64,000 nucleotides of DNA from a virus (IMGVR_UViG_3300037851_000141:192001-256000), one strand, 5' to 3'; shown: positions 3,038 to 11,357, counted from the stretch's first letter. Notes: a model not told the origin generated them from the sequence alone. Numbers and translations are program-made.

Positions 3038-3565
3038 ATGGTCCCTTTTCAACAACCTGATCAAAAACAGGCTATGATTAATGAACGAATCTCAGCCAGA
3101 GAAGTCTTATTAATCTCTTCAACCGGCGAGAAGCTTGGAATAATAAATACCAAGGAAGCACTACAAAAAGCAAAAAATGATGGTTTAGATTTGGTTCTTG
3201 TAGCCGAAACATCTAAGCCACCAGTTTGTAAAATAATGGATTATAACAAACTTATTTACGAACAAAAGAAACGCGAAAAGAAAAATGAATCACATGGTAA
3301 AGTCGAGATAAAAGAACTCCGTTTCGGCATCTGTATTCAAGACCATGATCTACAAATTAAGGCTAAACAAGCAAAAGAATTCTTGGAAAAGGGTTGGAGA
3401 GTCAAGTTATCAGTTCAATTCTCTGGTCGCGAAAAACAACATCCCGAATTAGGTATTGATGTCCTAAATCGTTTTATCAAGTTTGTTGGCGAAGATAAAT
3501 CAAAATTCGAGAACCAACCAAGACTTGAGGGACGATACATGAATACATACTTGCTCAAAAAATAA
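3038..3565 (+). CDS. infC: Translation initiation factor IF-3
   Basis: INERISAREVLLI, LDLVLVAETSKPPVCKIMDY, KELRFG..HDLQIKAKQAKEFLEKG..VKLSVQFSGRE, PRLEGRYM. Confidence 0.95.
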   Translation: MVPFQQPDQKQAMINERISAREVLLISSTGEKLGIINTKEALQKAKNDGLDLVLVAETSKPPVCKIMDYNKLIYEQKKREKKNESHGKVEIKELRFGICIQDHDLQIKAKQAKEFLEKGWRVKLSVQFSGREKQHPELGIDVLNRFIKFVGEDKSKFENQPRLEGRYMNTYLLKK

Positions 3566-3593
3566 TATAAATAAGGTAATATAGGAGCAAGTT

Positions 3594-4100
3594 ATGACAT
3601 TCAAAGACACATTAAAGAAAAAATTGGAAGAAACTGTTGGTTATGGTGTTCAATTCCCCGGTCAAATGCCTATACAAATGATAGATTTCCCTTCCCAACA
3701 ACCAGAAGTAAATGGAATTGAACCAAAAATAACCTCTGGTGAAACAACTCCATTTGGACAACCAAGACAAGATAAGGCTATGGAAGTAAATCAACCACAA
3801 GCTGATACCGCTGTCATTGATGAAGTTGGAAATCTCTTGCTCACTATTGGTTTTATCCTTAACAATGCTGGCTTAATTTCAGATCGTTTTAATGCTGGTG
3901 AAATTCTTGATTTTGTTAACCATAATTTCGAACAACCTATGGCTCCAACTGAACAAAATCCTCTAAGTCCTGTAAATGGTGGATGTTGTGGCGGCGCGCA
4001 TAGTTGTGGATCAGAATGTTCTTGCGTTTCTCAAAATCCTGGTTATACTTATCTTCAGGAGAAACGCAAACTATTTGAGTCAAGGCACCGACCCAAATAA
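3594..4100 (+). CDS. Hypothetical late protein with Cys-rich C-terminal patch
   Basis: TATAAATA at 3566, AGGAG RBS, GGCCGGAHSCGSECSC. Confidence 0.65.
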   Translation: MTFKDTLKKKLEETVGYGVQFPGQMPIQMIDFPSQQPEVNGIEPKITSGETTPFGQPRQDKAMEVNQPQADTAVIDEVGNLLLTIGFILNNAGLISDRFNAGEILDFVNHNFEQPMAPTEQNPLSPVNGGCCGGAHSCGSECSCVSQNPGYTYLQEKRKLFESRHRPK

Positions 4101-4123
4101 GTAATAGATAAGGCCAAAGACTT

Positions 4124-4825
4124 ATGAATAACATTAAACAACAATCTTCTGATATTATTTTAGAAGGCTATTGGAAATATGGTTGGGTTATTCCAGTTAG
4201 TCTTTTTGTTTTTTGTATTATCTTTATGATTTTACGTAGAATTGATACTGATACTGATCAACGTATTTTATCCCAAACAATTATAGCTGCCGCACCTTCG
4301 CAAGACGATAAACAGTTGATGGTGCGGTTTGAAGATATTGATATTAAACCTGAAGATAAACAAGTAATAATGAACGATCCACCAGTTTTTATCAATTATG
4401 GTGGTAAAATATATAAAGAACTTGAAAATGGACTATATGAAGATAAAGATGGTGGATTGTGGCGAAAAATAAAGGTTTCTACCACAGCATATACTTGGAT
4501 TGATGATGGATTTGATTCAAGTATTGGTGCGGGCGATGGGGTCACTTCTATTGGTAAATGCGCAATTAAAACCTATGGAATTGCCGCTGATCCTAAAGCA
4601 ATTCCCTATGGGTCAACTGTTCATGTAGCTGGTTATGGCGTTTACAAGGTTGATGATACTGGTGGAGCTATGCGAAAATCATATAAAAAAGGTGAAATAC
4701 GTCTTGACCTTAGAATTCCTCAAAAAGCTTCAAATGGTCAATGGAGAAGTATATCAACCTGTCGTAATATAGCTAAAAGACATGGATATCAGCAAGACCG
4801 AGAAGTTCTGTTGAAAATTCGTTAA
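4124..4825 (+). CDS. Membrane-anchored 3D (Asp-Asp-Asp) domain protein, putative peptidoglycan lytic enzyme
   Basis: N-terminal TM helix; STTAYT..GDGVTSIG..IAADPKAIPYGS..VDDTGGAM..RLDL. Confidence 0.8.
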   Translation: MNNIKQQSSDIILEGYWKYGWVIPVSLFVFCIIFMILRRIDTDTDQRILSQTIIAAAPSQDDKQLMVRFEDIDIKPEDKQVIMNDPPVFINYGGKIYKELENGLYEDKDGGLWRKIKVSTTAYTWIDDGFDSSIGAGDGVTSIGKCAIKTYGIAADPKAIPYGSTVHVAGYGVYKVDDTGGAMRKSYKKGEIRLDLRIPQKASNGQWRSISTCRNIAKRHGYQQDREVLLKIR

Positions 4826-4930: not shown

Positions 4931-5722
4931 ATGGACATGCACTTTCAATCCGTAGTCGTAACTCTCGTTGGAGCCGACAATAAACCCTTTAGGGAATATG
5001 ATCCACACCAAGTAGAAAATGGCAGACGTTGTAATCTGATTATGCCATTTGATACTGAATATAAGGTTTTCGTTAAGAATCTCGCAGACCGTAGAATTAA
5101 ACTTGATATTGAAGTTGATGGAACTAATGTATCAGGTAAAGGTCTTATTATTGGTTCTAAAGAAAATGCCTATATTGAACGATTTGTTGATGCGGCTCGT
5201 AAATTCAAGTTTGTAAAGGCTCAAGGTGCTGGCGCAAACCCAAATGTAGCCGATCCAACAAGTCCTGAAAATGGTATAGTGAAAATCCGAGTAGCCAAAG
5301 AGAAACAAGCTACATTAAATTGGAATTATTATTACAATCAGCCTTCAATATGGACTTCCCCAATAAATCCATATCCACTAAATCCAGAAATTATTTGTTA
5401 TGGGTCACAGTCAAATCCGACAGGAACACCAATATCATGTTCATATAAAGGTGGTGCTGGAGATAATATAAAACGAGGGTTCAGCACCAAATCAATGAGT
5501 TTTAGTAGTTTGGCATCTGCTGAGACACAACCAAAGACTGATGTTGGTGCTACTGTAGAAGGTAATAATAGTGGTCAATCTTTCGGCACAACTTACTGGA
5601 ATGGTGATGACGGAGATTCAATGGTATTTACGTTTTATGTTCGTGGCGTCGAGAATGGAATAACACCAGAAGAACAACGTCAATATGAAGAATACCTGCG
5701 TCTCAAAGAAAAATTTGGTTGA
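4931..5722 (+). CDS. Hypothetical protein
   Basis: 263-aa ORF with AAGGAAGG RBS; no recognisable catalytic motif. Confidence 0.7.
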   Translation: MDMHFQSVVVTLVGADNKPFREYDPHQVENGRRCNLIMPFDTEYKVFVKNLADRRIKLDIEVDGTNVSGKGLIIGSKENAYIERFVDAARKFKFVKAQGAGANPNVADPTSPENGIVKIRVAKEKQATLNWNYYYNQPSIWTSPINPYPLNPEIICYGSQSNPTGTPISCSYKGGAGDNIKRGFSTKSMSFSSLASAETQPKTDVGATVEGNNSGQSFGTTYWNGDDGDSMVFTFYVRGVENGITPEEQRQYEEYLRLKEKFG

Positions 5723-5746
5723 CAAATAGAAAAATGTTGGTAAAAT
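5719..5746 (+). promoter_or_regulatory. Sigma70-type promoter upstream of tRNA cluster
   Basis: TTGACA (5719-5724), 16-nt spacer, TAAAAT (5741-5746). Confidence 0.6.
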
Positions 5747-5790
5747 AGGGGCGTATCAGATATAAATCACTTGGTACGCCTCTTTTACAT

Positions 5791-5907
5791 GCTGGTTTAG
5801 CTCAGGGGTAGAGCAGTTGTTTTGCTGGAATATAGGAAAGCAAGACGGTTCGAGTCCGTCATTCTGGAATAAACAACAGGTCGGGGGTTCAAATCCCTCA
5901 ACCAGCA
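5791..5907 (+). tRNA. tRNA-Thr(UGU) with 45-nt insertion (5825-5869) inside the anticodon; no encoded CCA
   Basis: Acceptor GCTGGTT/AACCAGC+A, D-arm GCTC/GAGC, anticodon stem GTTGT/ACAAC, T-arm GGGGG-TTCAAAT-CCCTC. Removing the insert gives loop TT-TGT-AA. Confidence 0.85.
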
Positions 5908-5921
5908 TTATAAATAATACT

Positions 5922-6260
5922 ATGAACATAAACCATATCTTTGACAACTTTATAGAAACTGGAAAAATGAGTGTTGATGATGCTAAATTGTTTCTTGACC
6001 AAATCTTAGAGTTCACCAAAGGTCAAGAATTTACAAGTGTCATTGATGTTTATTCTTTTTTAGTTGAACATGGTTTGGTTGAAGATAAACTAAAATTCCA
6101 TGAGCCAACTAAAAGAATGTATCTTGATTCGTCTAAAGCACATAAGGTAATAAGATTCTTTAAGTCATTGGATCTTATTGAATATACAGACGAAGATTTT
6201 GAGGACTTCAAGAAAAAAGTACTTGACTCTGAAACATCTCTTGGTAAAATACTACCATGA
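5922..6260 (+). CDS. Hypothetical protein (true start 5922; the longer track ORF runs through the tRNA)
   Basis: TATAAATA at 5909-5916 immediately upstream of ATG. Confidence 0.65.
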   Translation: MNINHIFDNFIETGKMSVDDAKLFLDQILEFTKGQEFTSVIDVYSFLVEHGLVEDKLKFHEPTKRMYLDSSKAHKVIRFFKSLDLIEYTDEDFEDFKKKVLDSETSLGKILP

Positions 6261-6351
6261 GACATAAACATGAGTCAAATCATCTTTTATCTATCTGAGT
6301 GCGGACCCTAAACAGGTCGTTGGCACACGAATTGACAAGTATATATCGTAC

Positions 6352-6426
6352 TGCGGGATGGTGTAACGGTTAGCATAGCGGCCTCATAAGCCGCAGATTT
6401 AGGTTCAAATCCTGATCCCGCCACCA
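6352..6426 (+). tRNA. tRNA-Met(CAU), initiator-like
   Basis: TGCGGGA/TCCCGCC with 1:72 mismatch, GCGGC-CTCATAA-GCCGC, TTCAAAT T-loop, encoded ACCA. Confidence 0.9.
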
Positions 6427-6428
6427 AT

Positions 6429-6490
6429 AATCCGAATGCTGATAAGATTACATATCATTAAAAACCAATCTTATCAAATTTTGTCGGATT
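6429..6490 (+). ncRNA. Structured repeat element copy 1 (CGA-ATGC...TACAT...TTTTG-TCG scaffold)
   Basis: AATCCGA/TCGGATT outer stem, TGATAAGATT/AATCTTATCA inner stem. Confidence 0.65.
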
Positions 6491-6503
6491 TTATTTCTGA
6501 GTT

Positions 6504-6575
6504 AATACCGAATGCTTGTTGAGAGTACATTTCCTTGTAAGAAACCAACCCCTCTCAACCACTTTTGTCGGTATT
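6504..6575 (+). ncRNA. Structured repeat element copy 2
   Basis: AATACCGA/TCGGTATT, GTTGAGAG/CTCTCAAC; apical TTTC-CTTGTAA-GAAA hairpin. Confidence 0.65.
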
Positions 6576-6583
6576 TTTCTTTA

Positions 6584-6694
6584 TGAGGGTTCGAATTCAA
6601 GTTGCTGGTGGAATTCCCACGACCTACCTACCAGTAGTAAAGAGCTTGATAGTAGAATAGCTAAGCGCGGCCAGTCGTGACCTCAAAACTGGCG
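6584..6694 (+). ncRNA. Unassigned structured RNA candidate
   Basis: Manual stems TCAAGTT/AGCTTGA, GCTGGTGG/CTACCAGT, GCCAGT/ACTGGC; possible long-range TGAGG/CCTCA. Confidence 0.35.
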
Positions 6695-6698
6695 TTAC

Positions 6699-6776
6699 GC
6701 TCTCATCGTCTAGCCCGGTTAGGACATTTGGTTTTCATCCAAAAAACGTGGAGTTCAAATCTCCCTGAGAGTACCA
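6699..6776 (+). tRNA. tRNA-Glu(UUC)
   Basis: GCTCTCA/TGAGAGT, TTTGG-TTTTCAT-CCAAA, TTCAAAT T-loop, encoded ACCA. Confidence 0.9.
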
Positions 6777-6778
6777 AT

Positions 6779-6841
6779 GAAGCGAATGCAGATAAGATTA
6801 CATTCTGGAAAAAATAAAATCTTATCAAATTTTGTCGCTTC
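6779..6841 (+). ncRNA. Structured repeat element copy 3
   Basis: GAAGCGA/TCGCTTC, GATAAGATT/AATCTTATC. Confidence 0.65.
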
Positions 6842-6847
6842 TTATAT

Positions 6848-6953
6848 GCTGCGTTGACAGATCGGTTATGTGCTAGCCTTCCCGAGAAAAGGAGCCTAAA
6901 GCTTTAATTCTCGACCAAAGCTAGAAAGGCGGGTTCGATTCCCGCACGCGGCT
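6848..6953 (+). tRNA. tRNA-Gly(UCC) with 35-nt insertion (6883-6917) after the anticodon; no encoded CCA
   Basis: GCTGCGT/ACGCGGC+U73, anticodon stem CTAGC/GCTAG, GCGGG-TTCGATT-CCCGC. Removing the insert gives CT-TCC-AA. Confidence 0.85.
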
Positions 6954-7026
6954 TAGATAGTTTAGTGTGGTGTTTTTTGAGAAATAAGAACGATTGGCTG
7001 GTCGGAAGCTACCAAGAGTTAGTGAT

Positions 7027-8343
7027 TTAGTTATCAACTGTTATCACTTTGGTTGTTGGGTCAAGATGGACTCTAAGCTCATCTCCGTCCAGAGTATAGA
7101 AACCAGTTTCCTTCCAGTAGAAACCCTTCCTATTTAACTCTAACTTACGTAATTTGGGAGGTATGTCGGGTAAGGTCTGTTCGTGGTTGCACGACGCATT
7201 ATAGTCTGCGTCGTCAGAAAAGCCACAACCTCGACAGATGTAAATCTTACCCTTCCTATTACTCTTACGTACCAATCCGCAACAACTACACCGTTGACTT
7301 CTGTAAGTACAAGACTGTAAAGTGAAGTGGACCCCAGCCTCTTCACAGCGGCTACTTACTTTGTCTCTGATGAGTGTGTTTGTCCAGTGGGACATCTTAC
7401 GACTCGTTCTACGACCATAGTTTATGTTATTTATCTCTTCCAACTTTAGATGCTTGATGTTCATTAAGTTTAGTTGGTTGACTGACCAATTAATGAAGTT
7501 CTCACGGTGAGATTGGGCTTTAAGGAAGGCTCGACTTCCTTTACGTTTGGCACTCAATTTATCTATAATAGAATCTAATGAGTGTCCATGAGAGTCTGTC
7601 TTTGGTGTTGTTTGTCTGTCCGACAACGATATTATTGTCAATTTACCTTGGTCAGCACCAACATCAACACCTTTGGTCTTAGGTGGAACATCTTTTTCCC
7701 ACCGTAGATTTACGAAGTTGGTTCCGATGAGGAACGAGTTGAGCATCTTCCAATCAGCATATTTTGAGTTATGTTTGTGGAATCTTATAGGTAGTTTGAT
7801 ATGACCATATTCATCACCGATACATTTGAGTCTGAGGACTCCGTTGAAATATGATGTATTTTGGGTTGGTTCCCAATCTATACATTTGCTTGATAATTCT
7901 GGGTTGATATTACTAAGATCAGGCTTTAGAGCCTGGAATTTCTGTAGATTTTGATATAGTCTCTCATTATAAACTCCTTCATCACAGAGTTTATTGAATA
8001 CCCATAATCTTCGTCTACGGACTTCCGTAGTTGCTGATATACATCCAGCAACCTGAGTTACCAGAGAGGATAATGCTCGGGCTGATAGTGGAGTTTGAAT
8101 ACCAAACAATTTGTAATCTATGAAACTTGGAGTTTCAAGGTTATCATCTTTGATAGAGAACTGATGCTCTGTAGATACTCCAGTTTCTTTATTTGTAGTA
8201 GTCCACTTGTATCCATGTTCCCAAATAAGGTCAACTATGAGTTGCCCAACTCTACGATACTCGGCAATAAACTTGTTCAACTTGTCAAGTTTATTCTTAT
8301 TTGTATCTTTAAGAGAATGAGAAGTTGACCGTATAGTAGTCAT
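7027..8343 (-). CDS. tnpB: TnpB/Cas12f-like RNA-guided RuvC endonuclease
   Basis: VGADQG (RuvC I), KLEEIN (RuvC II), SQRCSCCG..YICRGCGFSDDADYNAS (Zn finger + RuvC III). Confidence 0.85.
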   Translation of the reverse strand: MTTIRSTSHSLKDTNKNKLDKLNKFIAEYRRVGQLIVDLIWEHGYKWTTTNKETGVSTEHQFSIKDDNLETPSFIDYKLFGIQTPLSARALSSLVTQVAGCISATTEVRRRRLWVFNKLCDEGVYNERLYQNLQKFQALKPDLSNINPELSSKCIDWEPTQNTSYFNGVLRLKCIGDEYGHIKLPIRFHKHNSKYADWKMLNSFLIGTNFVNLRWEKDVPPKTKGVDVGADQGKLTIISLSDRQTTPKTDSHGHSLDSIIDKLSAKRKGSRAFLKAQSHRENFINWSVNQLNLMNIKHLKLEEINNINYGRRTSRKMSHWTNTLIRDKVSSRCEEAGVHFTLQSCTYRSQRCSCCGLVRKSNRKGKIYICRGCGFSDDADYNASCNHEQTLPDIPPKLRKLELNRKGFYWKETGFYTLDGDELRVHLDPTTKVITVDN

Positions 8344-9857: not shown

Positions 9858-11357
9858 ATGACCTCTCAACAAATTGACCAAAAGACCAAGATTCTAAATG
9901 AAGTTTTTGGATATGAAACATTTAGAAAAGGTCAGGAAGAGATTATTGATGCTGTAATGGATGATAATAATAAAGGTGTATTGGTTGTTATGCCTACTGG
10001 CGGTGGTAAAAGTATAACATTCCAAATACCGGCGTTGATGATGAAGAATATGACTTTGGTTATTAGCCCATTGATTTCTCTAATGAAAGACCAAGTTGAC
10101 ACATTAGAGAAAAAAGGCGTCAACGTAGCCTATTATAATTCCAGCATGACGGAGAAACAAAAGAAAGAAACCATCAATAGCATACAGCTTGGAATTGTCA
10201 ATCTGTTATATGTTGCTCCAGAGAGATTTGATGATGAAAACTTTATGCTATTGGTTGAAAGTGTTGGTGTTGATTTAATAGCAATCGATGAGGCACATTG
10301 TATCTCATTCTACGGACACGATTTCCGACCATCATATCTTAGGATTCGTGAAGTTATTGAAAGATTGCGGCCTCGCCAAGTTATTGCTGTTACTGCGACT
10401 GCTCCACCCAAAGTACAAACAGATATATGCGAAAAGTTGGGTATTCCGAAGGCTAAAAAGTTTATTCGTGGTATATATCGTGATAACCTTATTATAAAGA
10501 TAAACATTTTAGATAGTGGCGGTAATTATAGGGTAAACAAGATTATAAGCAAGTTAAAGTCTTATCATGAAAATGGGATAAAGACTGGAATTGTTTATGT
10601 TGCTACACGAAAAGCAGCAGAAGGTATGCACGCCCTTTTAAAATCCAGAGGTATCGAATCTGTCGTATATCATGCTGGTTTGGAGGATAAAGAACGAACC
10701 AAAGTACAAGAAGAATGGTTCAAGAAAGGTGGTACTGTTATAGCTACTATCGCTTTCGGTATGGGAGTTGATAAAGCTGATGTAAGATTTGTTATACACG
10801 CAAATATGTCTGGAAGTATTGAAGCGTGGTCGCAGGAGTGCGGTCGTTGTGGTCGGGACGGTGAACCAGCAGTTTGTACATCATTTATTAGTCGTGGCGA
10901 AGATTATAGAACGCATATGTATTTTATTGATCTTAGTAATCCTCCGAGTGAACGAGTAAGAAAGTTTTGGTATGCTTTAAATGAGTTTGCCAGAAATAAG
11001 AAACCAAATGAAGATGAAGTTATATTGGATATGACTCAGAAAGATATGGAAGAGGCATTTGATTTTGAGAATGGAATGGTTAGTGGATGTATTGGGGTAT
11101 TAAAGAGATATCAGTTGGTTAAGACTCTTGGGCGTGGTAAATACATGGTCAAGACGTATGAAGATCCAGACCGCGCCCGTATTAACTATGCTGATATTGA
11201 TAAAAAGCGTCAAGATAAGATTGATAAGTTAAATGAGACATTGGAGTTTATGTATAATGACTCTGAGTGTAGGTTTAAGCAGATTGGTAAATATTTTGGT
11301 ATAGATGATGATATTCGTTGTAAAAAATGTGACGTATGCTTAGGGGAGGTTGAATGA
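9858..11357 (+). CDS. recQ: RecQ-family DNA helicase
   Basis: MPTGGGKS, AIDEAHCISFYGHDFRPSY, ATIAFGMGVDK, QECGRCGRDG, C-terminal Zn Cys motif. Confidence 0.95.
   Translation: MTSQQIDQKTKILNEVFGYETFRKGQEEIIDAVMDDNNKGVLVVMPTGGGKSITFQIPALMMKNMTLVISPLISLMKDQVDTLEKKGVNVAYYNSSMTEKQKKETINSIQLGIVNLLYVAPERFDDENFMLLVESVGVDLIAIDEAHCISFYGHDFRPSYLRIREVIERLRPRQVIAVTATAPPKVQTDICEKLGIPKAKKFIRGIYRDNLIIKINILDSGGNYRVNKIISKLKSYHENGIKTGIVYVATRKAAEGMHALLKSRGIESVVYHAGLEDKERTKVQEEWFKKGGTVIATIAFGMGVDKADVRFVIHANMSGSIEAWSQECGRCGRDGEPAVCTSFISRGEDYRTHMYFIDLSNPPSERVRKFWYALNEFARNKKPNEDEVILDMTQKDMEEAFDFENGMVSGCIGVLKRYQLVKTLGRGKYMVKTYEDPDRARINYADIDKKRQDKIDKLNETLEFMYNDSECRFKQIGKYFGIDDDIRCKKCDVCLGEVE

Follow-up and report, generated by a model that had tools for sequence, protein, structure and literature searches.

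Three similar hairpins lie between the tRNA genes of a viral genome, and the question raised by this locus is what these hairpins are. The window analysed in the present study is a stretch of 64,000 nucleotides (IMGVR_UViG_3300037851_000141:192001-256000) of this genome, which is designated G000 below. A preliminary description of the window reported three copies of an unassigned structured RNA, and proposed a family of small RNAs that are co-transcribed with tRNAs and perhaps act as anticodon decoys, guides or processing signals. Y RNAs are small noncoding RNAs bound by the ring-shaped Ro60/Rsr protein. We found that the scaffold of the hairpins is the Ro60-binding module of the Y RNAs YrlA and YrlB; the label "unassigned" was therefore abandoned in favour of a known family with a different function. 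We concluded that the three hairpins are very probably phage-encoded, minimal YrlB-like Y RNAs that lack a tRNA-like domain and would bind the phage Ro60, which is the best explanation of the whole. They are unannotated new members of a known family rather than a new RNA class. The clade in which they fall, one of phage Y RNAs interleaved with tRNAs, had not been modelled before. The features of the locus are listed in Table 1.

Table 1. Features of the tRNA/Y RNA array and related genes. Coordinates are positions in the window, except those preceded by G000 or L181.
Feature	Coordinates	Strand	Remarks
Sigma-70-like promoter match	6223..6250	+	TTGACT-16-TAAAAT, with TG; consensus match only
tRNA-Met(CAU)	6352..6426	+	ARAGORN; Rfam tRNA 57.8 bits; CCA at 6424-6426
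Y RNA copy 1	6429..6490	+	62 nt; probable minimal YrlB-like form
Y RNA copy 2	6504..6575	+	72 nt; scaffold as in copies 1 and 3, inner stem differs
tRNA-Glu(UUC)	6699..6776	+	ARAGORN; Rfam tRNA 52.6 bits; CCA at 6774-6776
Y RNA copy 3	6779..6841	+	63 nt; ends 6 nt 5' of tRNA-Gly
tRNA-Gly(UCC)-like gene	6848..6952	+	35-nt hairpin-ACCA insert
Fourth Y RNA, YrlA-like long form	G000:180458-180586 (L181:1503-1630)	+	129 nt; outside the window; found with model R2
Phage Ro60 gene	G000:188950-190695	+	581 aa; TROVE and Ro60-vWA domains

The three copies were read directly in the window at the positions previously reported, and share one scaffold. A 7-bp outer stem with a CGA/UCG end is followed by an AUGC/AAUUUUG internal loop and a 9-bp inner stem; the apex consists of UACAU and a variable loop (13-21 nt in these copies), after which come the 3' strand of the inner stem, A-A-U-U-U-U-G, and the 3' strand of the outer stem. 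The pattern CGAATGC-N20-50-TTTTGTCG was found three times in the window, against 0.01 expected, and these were its only matches in the whole 331,849-bp genome. All copies were predicted to fold as outer stem, internal loop and inner stem, with z scores of -4.0 to -5.3 against shuffles. The outer stems differ and are fully paired in each case (AAUCCGA/UCGGAUU in copy 1, AUACCGA/UCGGUAU in copy 2, and GAAGCGA/UCGCUUC in copy 3). Copies 1 and 3 have the same inner stem (GAUAAGAUU/AAUCUUAUC) and the same internal loop (AUGCU/AAAUUUUG in copy 1, which carries UACAU and an A-rich loop at its apex); their outer stems differ at four pairs, with 4/4 changes compensated. The inner stem of copy 2 is a different, also paired one (GUUGAGAG/CUCUCAAC). 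The previously reported scaffold and its variable but paired stems were thus reproduced.

The gene order 3' of the promoter match is tRNA-Met, Y RNA, Y RNA, tRNA-Glu, Y RNA and tRNA-Gly. Copies 1 and 3 both begin 2 nt past the CCA of the preceding tRNA, as had been noted earlier. A terminator scan of 5600-7100 found no terminator on the + strand. Since the hairpins lie on the tRNA strand and abut tRNAs, co-transcription and release by tRNA processing appear likely from the gene arrangement. The proposed family of tRNA-co-transcribed small RNAs held up in that the hairpins are conserved, covarying, on the tRNA strand and adjacent to tRNAs; however, it is not a novel class. The 121-nt spacer between copy 2 and tRNA-Glu (6578-6698) contains a T-loop-like GGGTTCGAATTC; no tRNA or Y RNA was called there, and its fold was no better than that of shuffles (z = -0.3). 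This spacer may be a decayed tRNA or Y RNA. An IF-3 gene (3038-3565, +; IF3_N 2e-30, IF3_C 3.9e-27) is located a few kb upstream of the tRNA/Y RNA cluster.

Relatives of the hairpins were sought in other viral contigs. A first scan with a 15-base pattern returned mostly chance matches, and the true family emerged when TACAT was added: this 20-base scaffold was found at 33 loci. About 25 of these are clearly homologous, and their stems are paired although the sequences differ. From the three window copies we built a covariance model (R1), which recovered 48-58 members in the homologous loci, often several per locus. An improved model (R2) was also used, and covariance-model searching gave 70+ relatives in 25 viral contigs. 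Copy 1 scored 91.4 bits with R1 and 74.5 bits with R2, and copies 2 and 3 scored 65.2 and 70.8 bits, respectively, with R2. In the alignment of 48 members, 94.6% of cells were paired (61.7% in shuffles), 15/16 pairs varied on both sides, and the covariation score was 0.82 against 0.19 in shuffles and 0.05-0.10 in slid controls, which bears out the covariation that had been claimed from three copies. Since one pair is G-U in 32/48 sequences, selection acts on the RNA of the + strand, which is the tRNA strand. The unpaired letters GAAUGC (44-48/48), UACAU (47-48/48) and UUUUG are nearly invariant, the base before UAC is a pyrimidine in 40/48 members, and the family consensus reads N-CGAAUGC ... 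YUACAU ... UUUUGUCG.

The homologous loci are tRNA arrays, and 179 of the 183 tRNAs called in them by ARAGORN lie on the hairpin strand. Nearly all relatives recovered are in such arrays and on the tRNA strand. More than half of the hairpins (27/48) are flanked, on one side or both, by a tRNA of the same strand no more than 5 nt away, the hairpin-tRNA spacings are 0-6 nt, and a contig holds up to 11 members. The densest array (L154, from the 47-kb fragment G027) has 11 members, nine of them within approximately 2 kb (G027:11100-13210).

The identity of the family was indicated by comparisons with bacterial Y RNAs. YrlA is a tRNA-mimicking bacterial Y RNA with the order stem, YUAY, V, T, AS, D and stem (PMC4201824); its defining motifs are GNCGAAN0-1G near the 5' end, the presumed Rsr/Ro60 contact, and YUAY after the stem (Chen et al. 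2014, PMC4201824). The window copies carry the first motif as UCCGAAUG, ACCGAAUG and AGCGAAUG, with CGAAUG in 3/3; the first G of the motif is present in 24/48 family members and in 0/3 window copies, which have U, A and A instead. The second motif is UUAC in copies 1 and 3 and GUAC in copy 2, and U-A-C is found in 47-48/48 members. The long end-to-end stem with an internal loop that is characteristic of Y RNAs was apparent from both the folds and the covariation. The tRNA-like domain of YrlA (T arm, closed acceptor-like stem and D arm) is absent in copies 1-3.

Copy 2 aligned end to end with the Rfam consensus of YrlB (RF02565) at 19.2 bits (E 0.32), far below the gathering score of 97 bits; that of YrlA (RF02553) is 69 bits. 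The YrlB consensus (..GcGaAUGCUgGcCgGGAUUACAUc...AUCCcGgCu..AUUUGuCgcgC) carries CGAAUGC, a GGGAU-type stem, UACAU and UUUGUCG, and the YrlA consensus (acggCgaAUGCuuggGgaaCUAc...AcUuGucGccg) has the same stem as the hairpin family. Copies 1 and 3 had no YrlA or YrlB match in Rfam, and at gathering thresholds no Rfam family was found for the hairpins in the window or in eight related loci. The comparison with Rfam therefore returned a known family in substance (YrlB and YrlA), but with all scores below the gathering cut-offs. These cut-offs are narrow: the Ro locus of one mycobacteriophage scores no more than 28.8 bits against Rfam YrlA, and mycobacteriophages are the phages from which YrlA was first described. 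In this locus, the stem was undetected by R2.

A small self-cleaving ribozyme that trims tRNA 3' ends, similar to theta/HDV-like ribozymes, was considered as another identity. The tRNA-linked theta/HDV-like ribozymes of phages sit beside tRNAs, and the position of the hairpins right after CCA resembles theirs. However, searches of Rfam up to E <= 10 gave no match to any ribozyme family, the fold has just two helices in a hairpin whose 5' and 3' ends pair with each other and no HDV-like nested pseudoknot, and the hairpin sequence is that of the YrlA/YrlB stem. We regard a ribozyme as barely credible. HDV-like, hammerhead, twister and pistol ribozymes, as well as H/ACA or C/D guides, were also dropped by inspection.

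A fourth Y RNA was identified in the same genome, 8.4 kb upstream of the Ro60 gene and between tRNA-Asn and tRNA-Met. Its stem is that of the window copies; in addition, it has V, T, closed acceptor-like and D arms, and aligned with YrlA over positions 1-114/114 (47.6 bits, E 3.5e-10; below the cut-off of 69). When the whole genome was searched with Rfam YrlA, the only matches were tandem-tRNA artefacts, and this long form went undetected. Other long forms scored 28.9-43.5 bits against YrlA, and two short forms scored 28-32 bits over the full model length. The longest forms were at first read as circularly permuted tRNA genes that need splicing; this reading was rejected because the published YrlA architecture explains them.

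The loops of the family range from 5 to 93 nt, and four types of head were distinguished: a short A-rich loop (copies 1 and 3), a lone small hairpin (copy 2), a hairpin with a T arm and a small D-like hairpin, and a hairpin with a T arm, a 7-bp closed acceptor-like stem and a D arm. We interpret the variable loop, from these sequences, as a payload slot on a constant Ro60-binding handle. At L129:10938-11046, the payload is an unpermuted tRNA body with D, anticodon and T arms (Rfam tRNA 39.9 bits at 10958-11026), in which the acceptor stem is replaced by the Y RNA inner stem.

The phage encodes a Ro60 protein, with PDB matches to Deinococcus Rsr (2NVO, 7.6e-14), Thermus phage phiRo60 (9KOP/9L5Y), and human and Xenopus Ro60. 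Its gene is on the same strand as copies 1-3 and 7.7 kb upstream of them, a distance greater than the 4 kb used as a criterion by Chen et al. (2014). A profile built from eight phage Ro60 proteins matched 11/26 hairpin-bearing viral contigs, including 7/7 contigs longer than 130 kb. It matched 0/4 chance-match contigs and 0/49 unrelated viral contigs (0/53; Fisher p = 8.5e-7), controls that are smaller phages and not size-matched to jumbo phages. In the relatives, hairpins and Ro60 gene share a strand without exception, and the distance between them ranges from 24 nt to about 20 kb; the hairpin starts 24 nt past the Ro60 stop codon in G004 and 53 nt past it in G012. A handle of the Ro60-binding-stem type is conserved in this family, which covaries, is associated with phage Ro60 genes and sits in tRNA arrays.

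Among cultured phages, Myxococcus phage Mx1 has the closest Ro60 (47.6% identity). The TROVE gene of Mx1 sits among tRNA genes, and two long forms were detected by R2 in the Mx1 tRNA array. One of these (L188:8614-8721; OR576727 45519-45626) lies directly 3' of tRNA-Ile and overlaps WNM70101.1 (45524-45646), a CDS annotated, probably in error, as a "hypothetical protein".

Several small, apparently complete phages (G008, G023 and G025) have one hairpin, beside a single tRNA, and no Ro60 detectable by the profile. The small-phage loci L135, L152 and L150 each have a single hairpin; in L131, L135 and L136, the hairpin follows a lone tRNA by 5-9 nt. The hairpin of G008 (L135:3332-3401, on a 52-kb contig rated 100% complete) is followed by a gene for an RNase T-type exonuclease (3406-4173). 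In small phages without Ro60, either the Ro60 of the host is used or Ro60 is not the only partner; their orphan Y RNAs may use host Ro60.

These results also bear on the view that the hairpins are passive, serving the tRNA operon as processing spacers or terminator-like structures and having no separate role. Their position exactly between tRNAs, in some cases followed by U-rich tracts, is consistent with such a function. However, the unpaired GAAUGC, UACAU and UUUUG are invariant across distant phages, the AT-rich stems fail the terminator scan, the motif is tied to Ro60 genes, and the long forms match YrlA. We consider a purely passive role highly improbable.

A TnpB-type gene (438-aa ORF, 7027-8343, - strand; Cas12f1-like TNB domain, PF07282, 3.5e-11) directly follows the tRNA-Gly gene on the strand opposite to the tRNA/Y RNA array. 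This TnpB/Cas12f-like ORF raises the idea that the hairpins are DNA-level hairpins or guide RNAs of a neighbouring IS200/IS605-type element. However, a tRNA gene lies between the hairpins and this ORF, which has the opposite orientation; the G-U pair described above points to selection on the + strand RNA; and the motif recurs beside Ro60 in the tRNA arrays of many phages, at a spacing of 24-53 nt in two. The probability of this explanation is practically negligible. Retron msr, bridge RNA, TnpB omega RNA and IS200/605 ends were dropped by inspection.

Returning to phage Y RNAs, we propose the following mechanism. The Y RNAs would be transcribed together with the tRNAs. Their upstream ends may arise by cleavage in the AU spacer after the upstream CCA, which would set the 5' ends of copy 1 (after tRNA-Met) and copy 3 (after tRNA-Glu). 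Downstream ends may be produced by RNase P at the next tRNA, and the 5' cut at tRNA-Gly would leave copy 3 with a 6-nt 3' tail. By analogy with known Y RNAs, the conserved 5' strand (N-CGAAUG) and the bulged stem would bind the phage Ro60, and the Y RNA may gate the Ro60 cavity, as in Deinococcus, Salmonella and Thermus phage phiLo. The A/U-rich apical loop would then tether Ro60 to an exoribonuclease. PNPase is the effector tethered to Ro60 in these three systems (PMC4201824; PMC12135203). In the phage genome, no RtcB gene and no RNase-PH/PNPase gene were found; because the phage has no gene with an RNase-PH domain, host PNPase is the most likely effector. The complex of Ro60, Y RNA and exoribonuclease may degrade or check structured RNAs during infection, and misprocessed tRNAs, excised tRNA mini-introns and host RNAs are possible substrates. 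Since the phage encodes Rnl2-like and Rnl1-like RNA ligases and several intron-bearing tRNAs, a role in RNA surveillance or repair during infection is plausible by analogy.

Four tRNA genes have inserts of 35-48 nt in the anticodon loop (window 5791-5907 and 6848-6952; G000:183007-183123 and 275593-275714). In three of them, a 7-bp stem is followed by UAUAGGAA, a T-arm-like hairpin and NCCA; the Thr insert lacks CCA. If the insert is cut out at the 5' end of the stem and after NCCA, the anticodon loops of Gln UUG, Arg UCU and Gly UCC are again 7 nt long. A tRNA-Lys(UUU) gene outside the window (G000:316550-316852, -) is interrupted after position 37 by a probable group I intron of 227 nt. A search for related loci with the neighbouring 263-aa ORF yielded no relatives, and when ARAGORN was run on the related loci with introns allowed, none of the tRNA introns called was convincingly of the minihelix type. 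Copy 3 has in its loop the sequence CAUUCUGGAA, which recurs at the 3' edge of the insert in tRNA-Thr (identity over 9-10 nt), as had been reported; however, a shared 10-mer arises in 0.9% of 20,000 loop shuffles, and the resemblance is thus borderline. We do not claim a link between Y RNAs and mini-introns, and the tRNA mini-introns beside the hairpins do not bear on hairpin identity.

The apical loops raised the possibility of anticodon mimicry. In the preliminary description, copy 2 was assigned a canonical Thr anticodon loop and copy 3 a Ser-like one. The sequence AUU-CUGGAAA-AAU is present in the loop of copy 3, on a 3-bp stem. In copy 2, the apex is a small hairpin with two alternatives; the anticodon-like UUUC-CUUGUAA-GAAA, on a 4-bp stem, is present, but the predicted minimum free energy fold and the alignment with the YrlB model both pair UACA/UGUA instead. 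Copy 1 has no anticodon-like hairpin. A strict anticodon stem-loop (5-bp stem, 7-nt loop, U33 and purine 37) is thus not a feature of all members. Nevertheless, in 10/48 members UAC is directly followed by a hairpin with a stem of 4 bp or more and a 7-nt loop, and in these loops C32 is present in 9/10 (binomial p = 1.7e-6), U33 in 7/10, A37 in 9/10 and A38 in 9/10. Among the short forms, 6/41 combine a stem of 4 bp or more and a 7-nt loop with U33 and purine 37, compared with 0.47 in shuffles. An anticodon-like signal is thus present at family level, in about a fifth of members; most members, like copy 1, lack the hairpin. The proposed function as an anticodon decoy, guide or processing signal received no direct support, although the 10/48 anticodon-type loops accord with it.

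Two readings of these loops were considered. In one, the hairpins are anticodon-arm mimics whose variable loop would titrate anticodon nucleases or tRNA-modifying enzymes, or act as a sensor for them, whether or not Ro60 takes part. The loops of copies 2 and 3 and the enrichments given above are in its favour; however, copy 1 and most family members have only an unstructured A-rich loop, copy 2 is predicted to pair differently, and the conserved part is the Ro60-binding stem and not the loop. Furthermore, the anticodon-like hairpins may be relics of a tRNA origin. Salmonella YrlA was described without an anticodon loop, and an origin from a dimeric tRNA transcript was proposed (bioRxiv 10.1101/312249). 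The phage long forms, all sitting inside tRNA arrays, look as this dimeric-tRNA model predicts, so that their hairpins may be such relics. We judge the reading as anticodon-arm mimics very unlikely. In the other, the apical slot is an exchangeable cartridge, and a subset of members displays a true anticodon-arm mimic (CU-NNN-AA; UGU, GUU, UCU, CUC, GAA and others), which would make Ro60-Y RNA particles decoys or sensors for anticodon-targeting nucleases or tRNA-modifying enzymes. This is an unlikely speculation; if true, it would link Ro60 to anti-defence. More modestly, the long forms, which combine an anticodon arm, a T arm, a 7-bp acceptor hairpin with a 5-6 nt linker and a D arm, may be living intermediates of the dimeric-tRNA origin.

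The identification of the hairpins as phage Y RNAs gives names to four Y RNAs of this genome, the three in the window and one outside it. It also delineates a large clade of phage Y RNAs that escapes Rfam cut-offs and GenBank annotation, with the Mx1 member annotated as a protein. The heads carried on the Ro60 handle, from a bare loop through a lone anticodon-like hairpin and an acceptor-less tRNA-like body to a full YrlA-like domain, form a natural series for asking what the effector module of a Y RNA does, and Mx1 with Myxococcus provides a tractable host-phage pair. Moreover, Ro60 and its Y RNAs join the two RNA ligases and the intron-bearing tRNAs as a phage kit for RNA repair and quality control.

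Among known systems, the metazoan and Deinococcus Y RNAs (RF00019; Yrn1) resemble the hairpins in the order of stem, bulge or internal loop, stem and loop and in a CGA-containing 5' strand contacted by Ro60. However, RF00019 gave no match, and the bulged-C helix GGUCCGA/UUGACC is not present in that form. Yrl1 and Yrl2 of Thermus phage phiLo were shown to bind both phiRo60 and the PNPase of the host (PMC12135203), the mechanism proposed above for the window copies. From their description, they are likewise phage-encoded hairpins of Y RNA type that carry a CGAA motif and lie close to a phage Ro60 gene, but they belong to another phage lineage and host, and are encoded just upstream of Ro60 rather than in a tRNA array.

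YrlA has been identified in over 250 bacteria and in 22 phages (PMC4201824; structure, bioRxiv 10.1101/312249). The window copies share its Ro60-binding stem and differ in the absence of the tRNA-like module and in scores that are all under 69; in contrast, the 129-nt form and many relatives have the full order of stem, YUAY, V, T, acceptor, D and stem. Many phage long forms have an anticodon-loop-like V hairpin, unlike Salmonella YrlA as described. The short Rsr-bound YrlB of Salmonella Typhimurium (RF02565; Chen et al. 2013, 2014; PMC4201824) differs from the window copies in several respects: these are phage-encoded and AT-rich, lie between tRNAs 7.7 kb from Ro60 and not in an rsr-yrlBA-rtcBA operon, have no phage RtcB, and score 19.2 bits against the gathering score of 97. 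However, they are like YrlB in being small hairpins closed by their own ends, with CGAAUGC, a GGGAU-type inner stem, UACAU and UUUGUCG, without a tRNA-like domain, and with several Y RNAs per genome.
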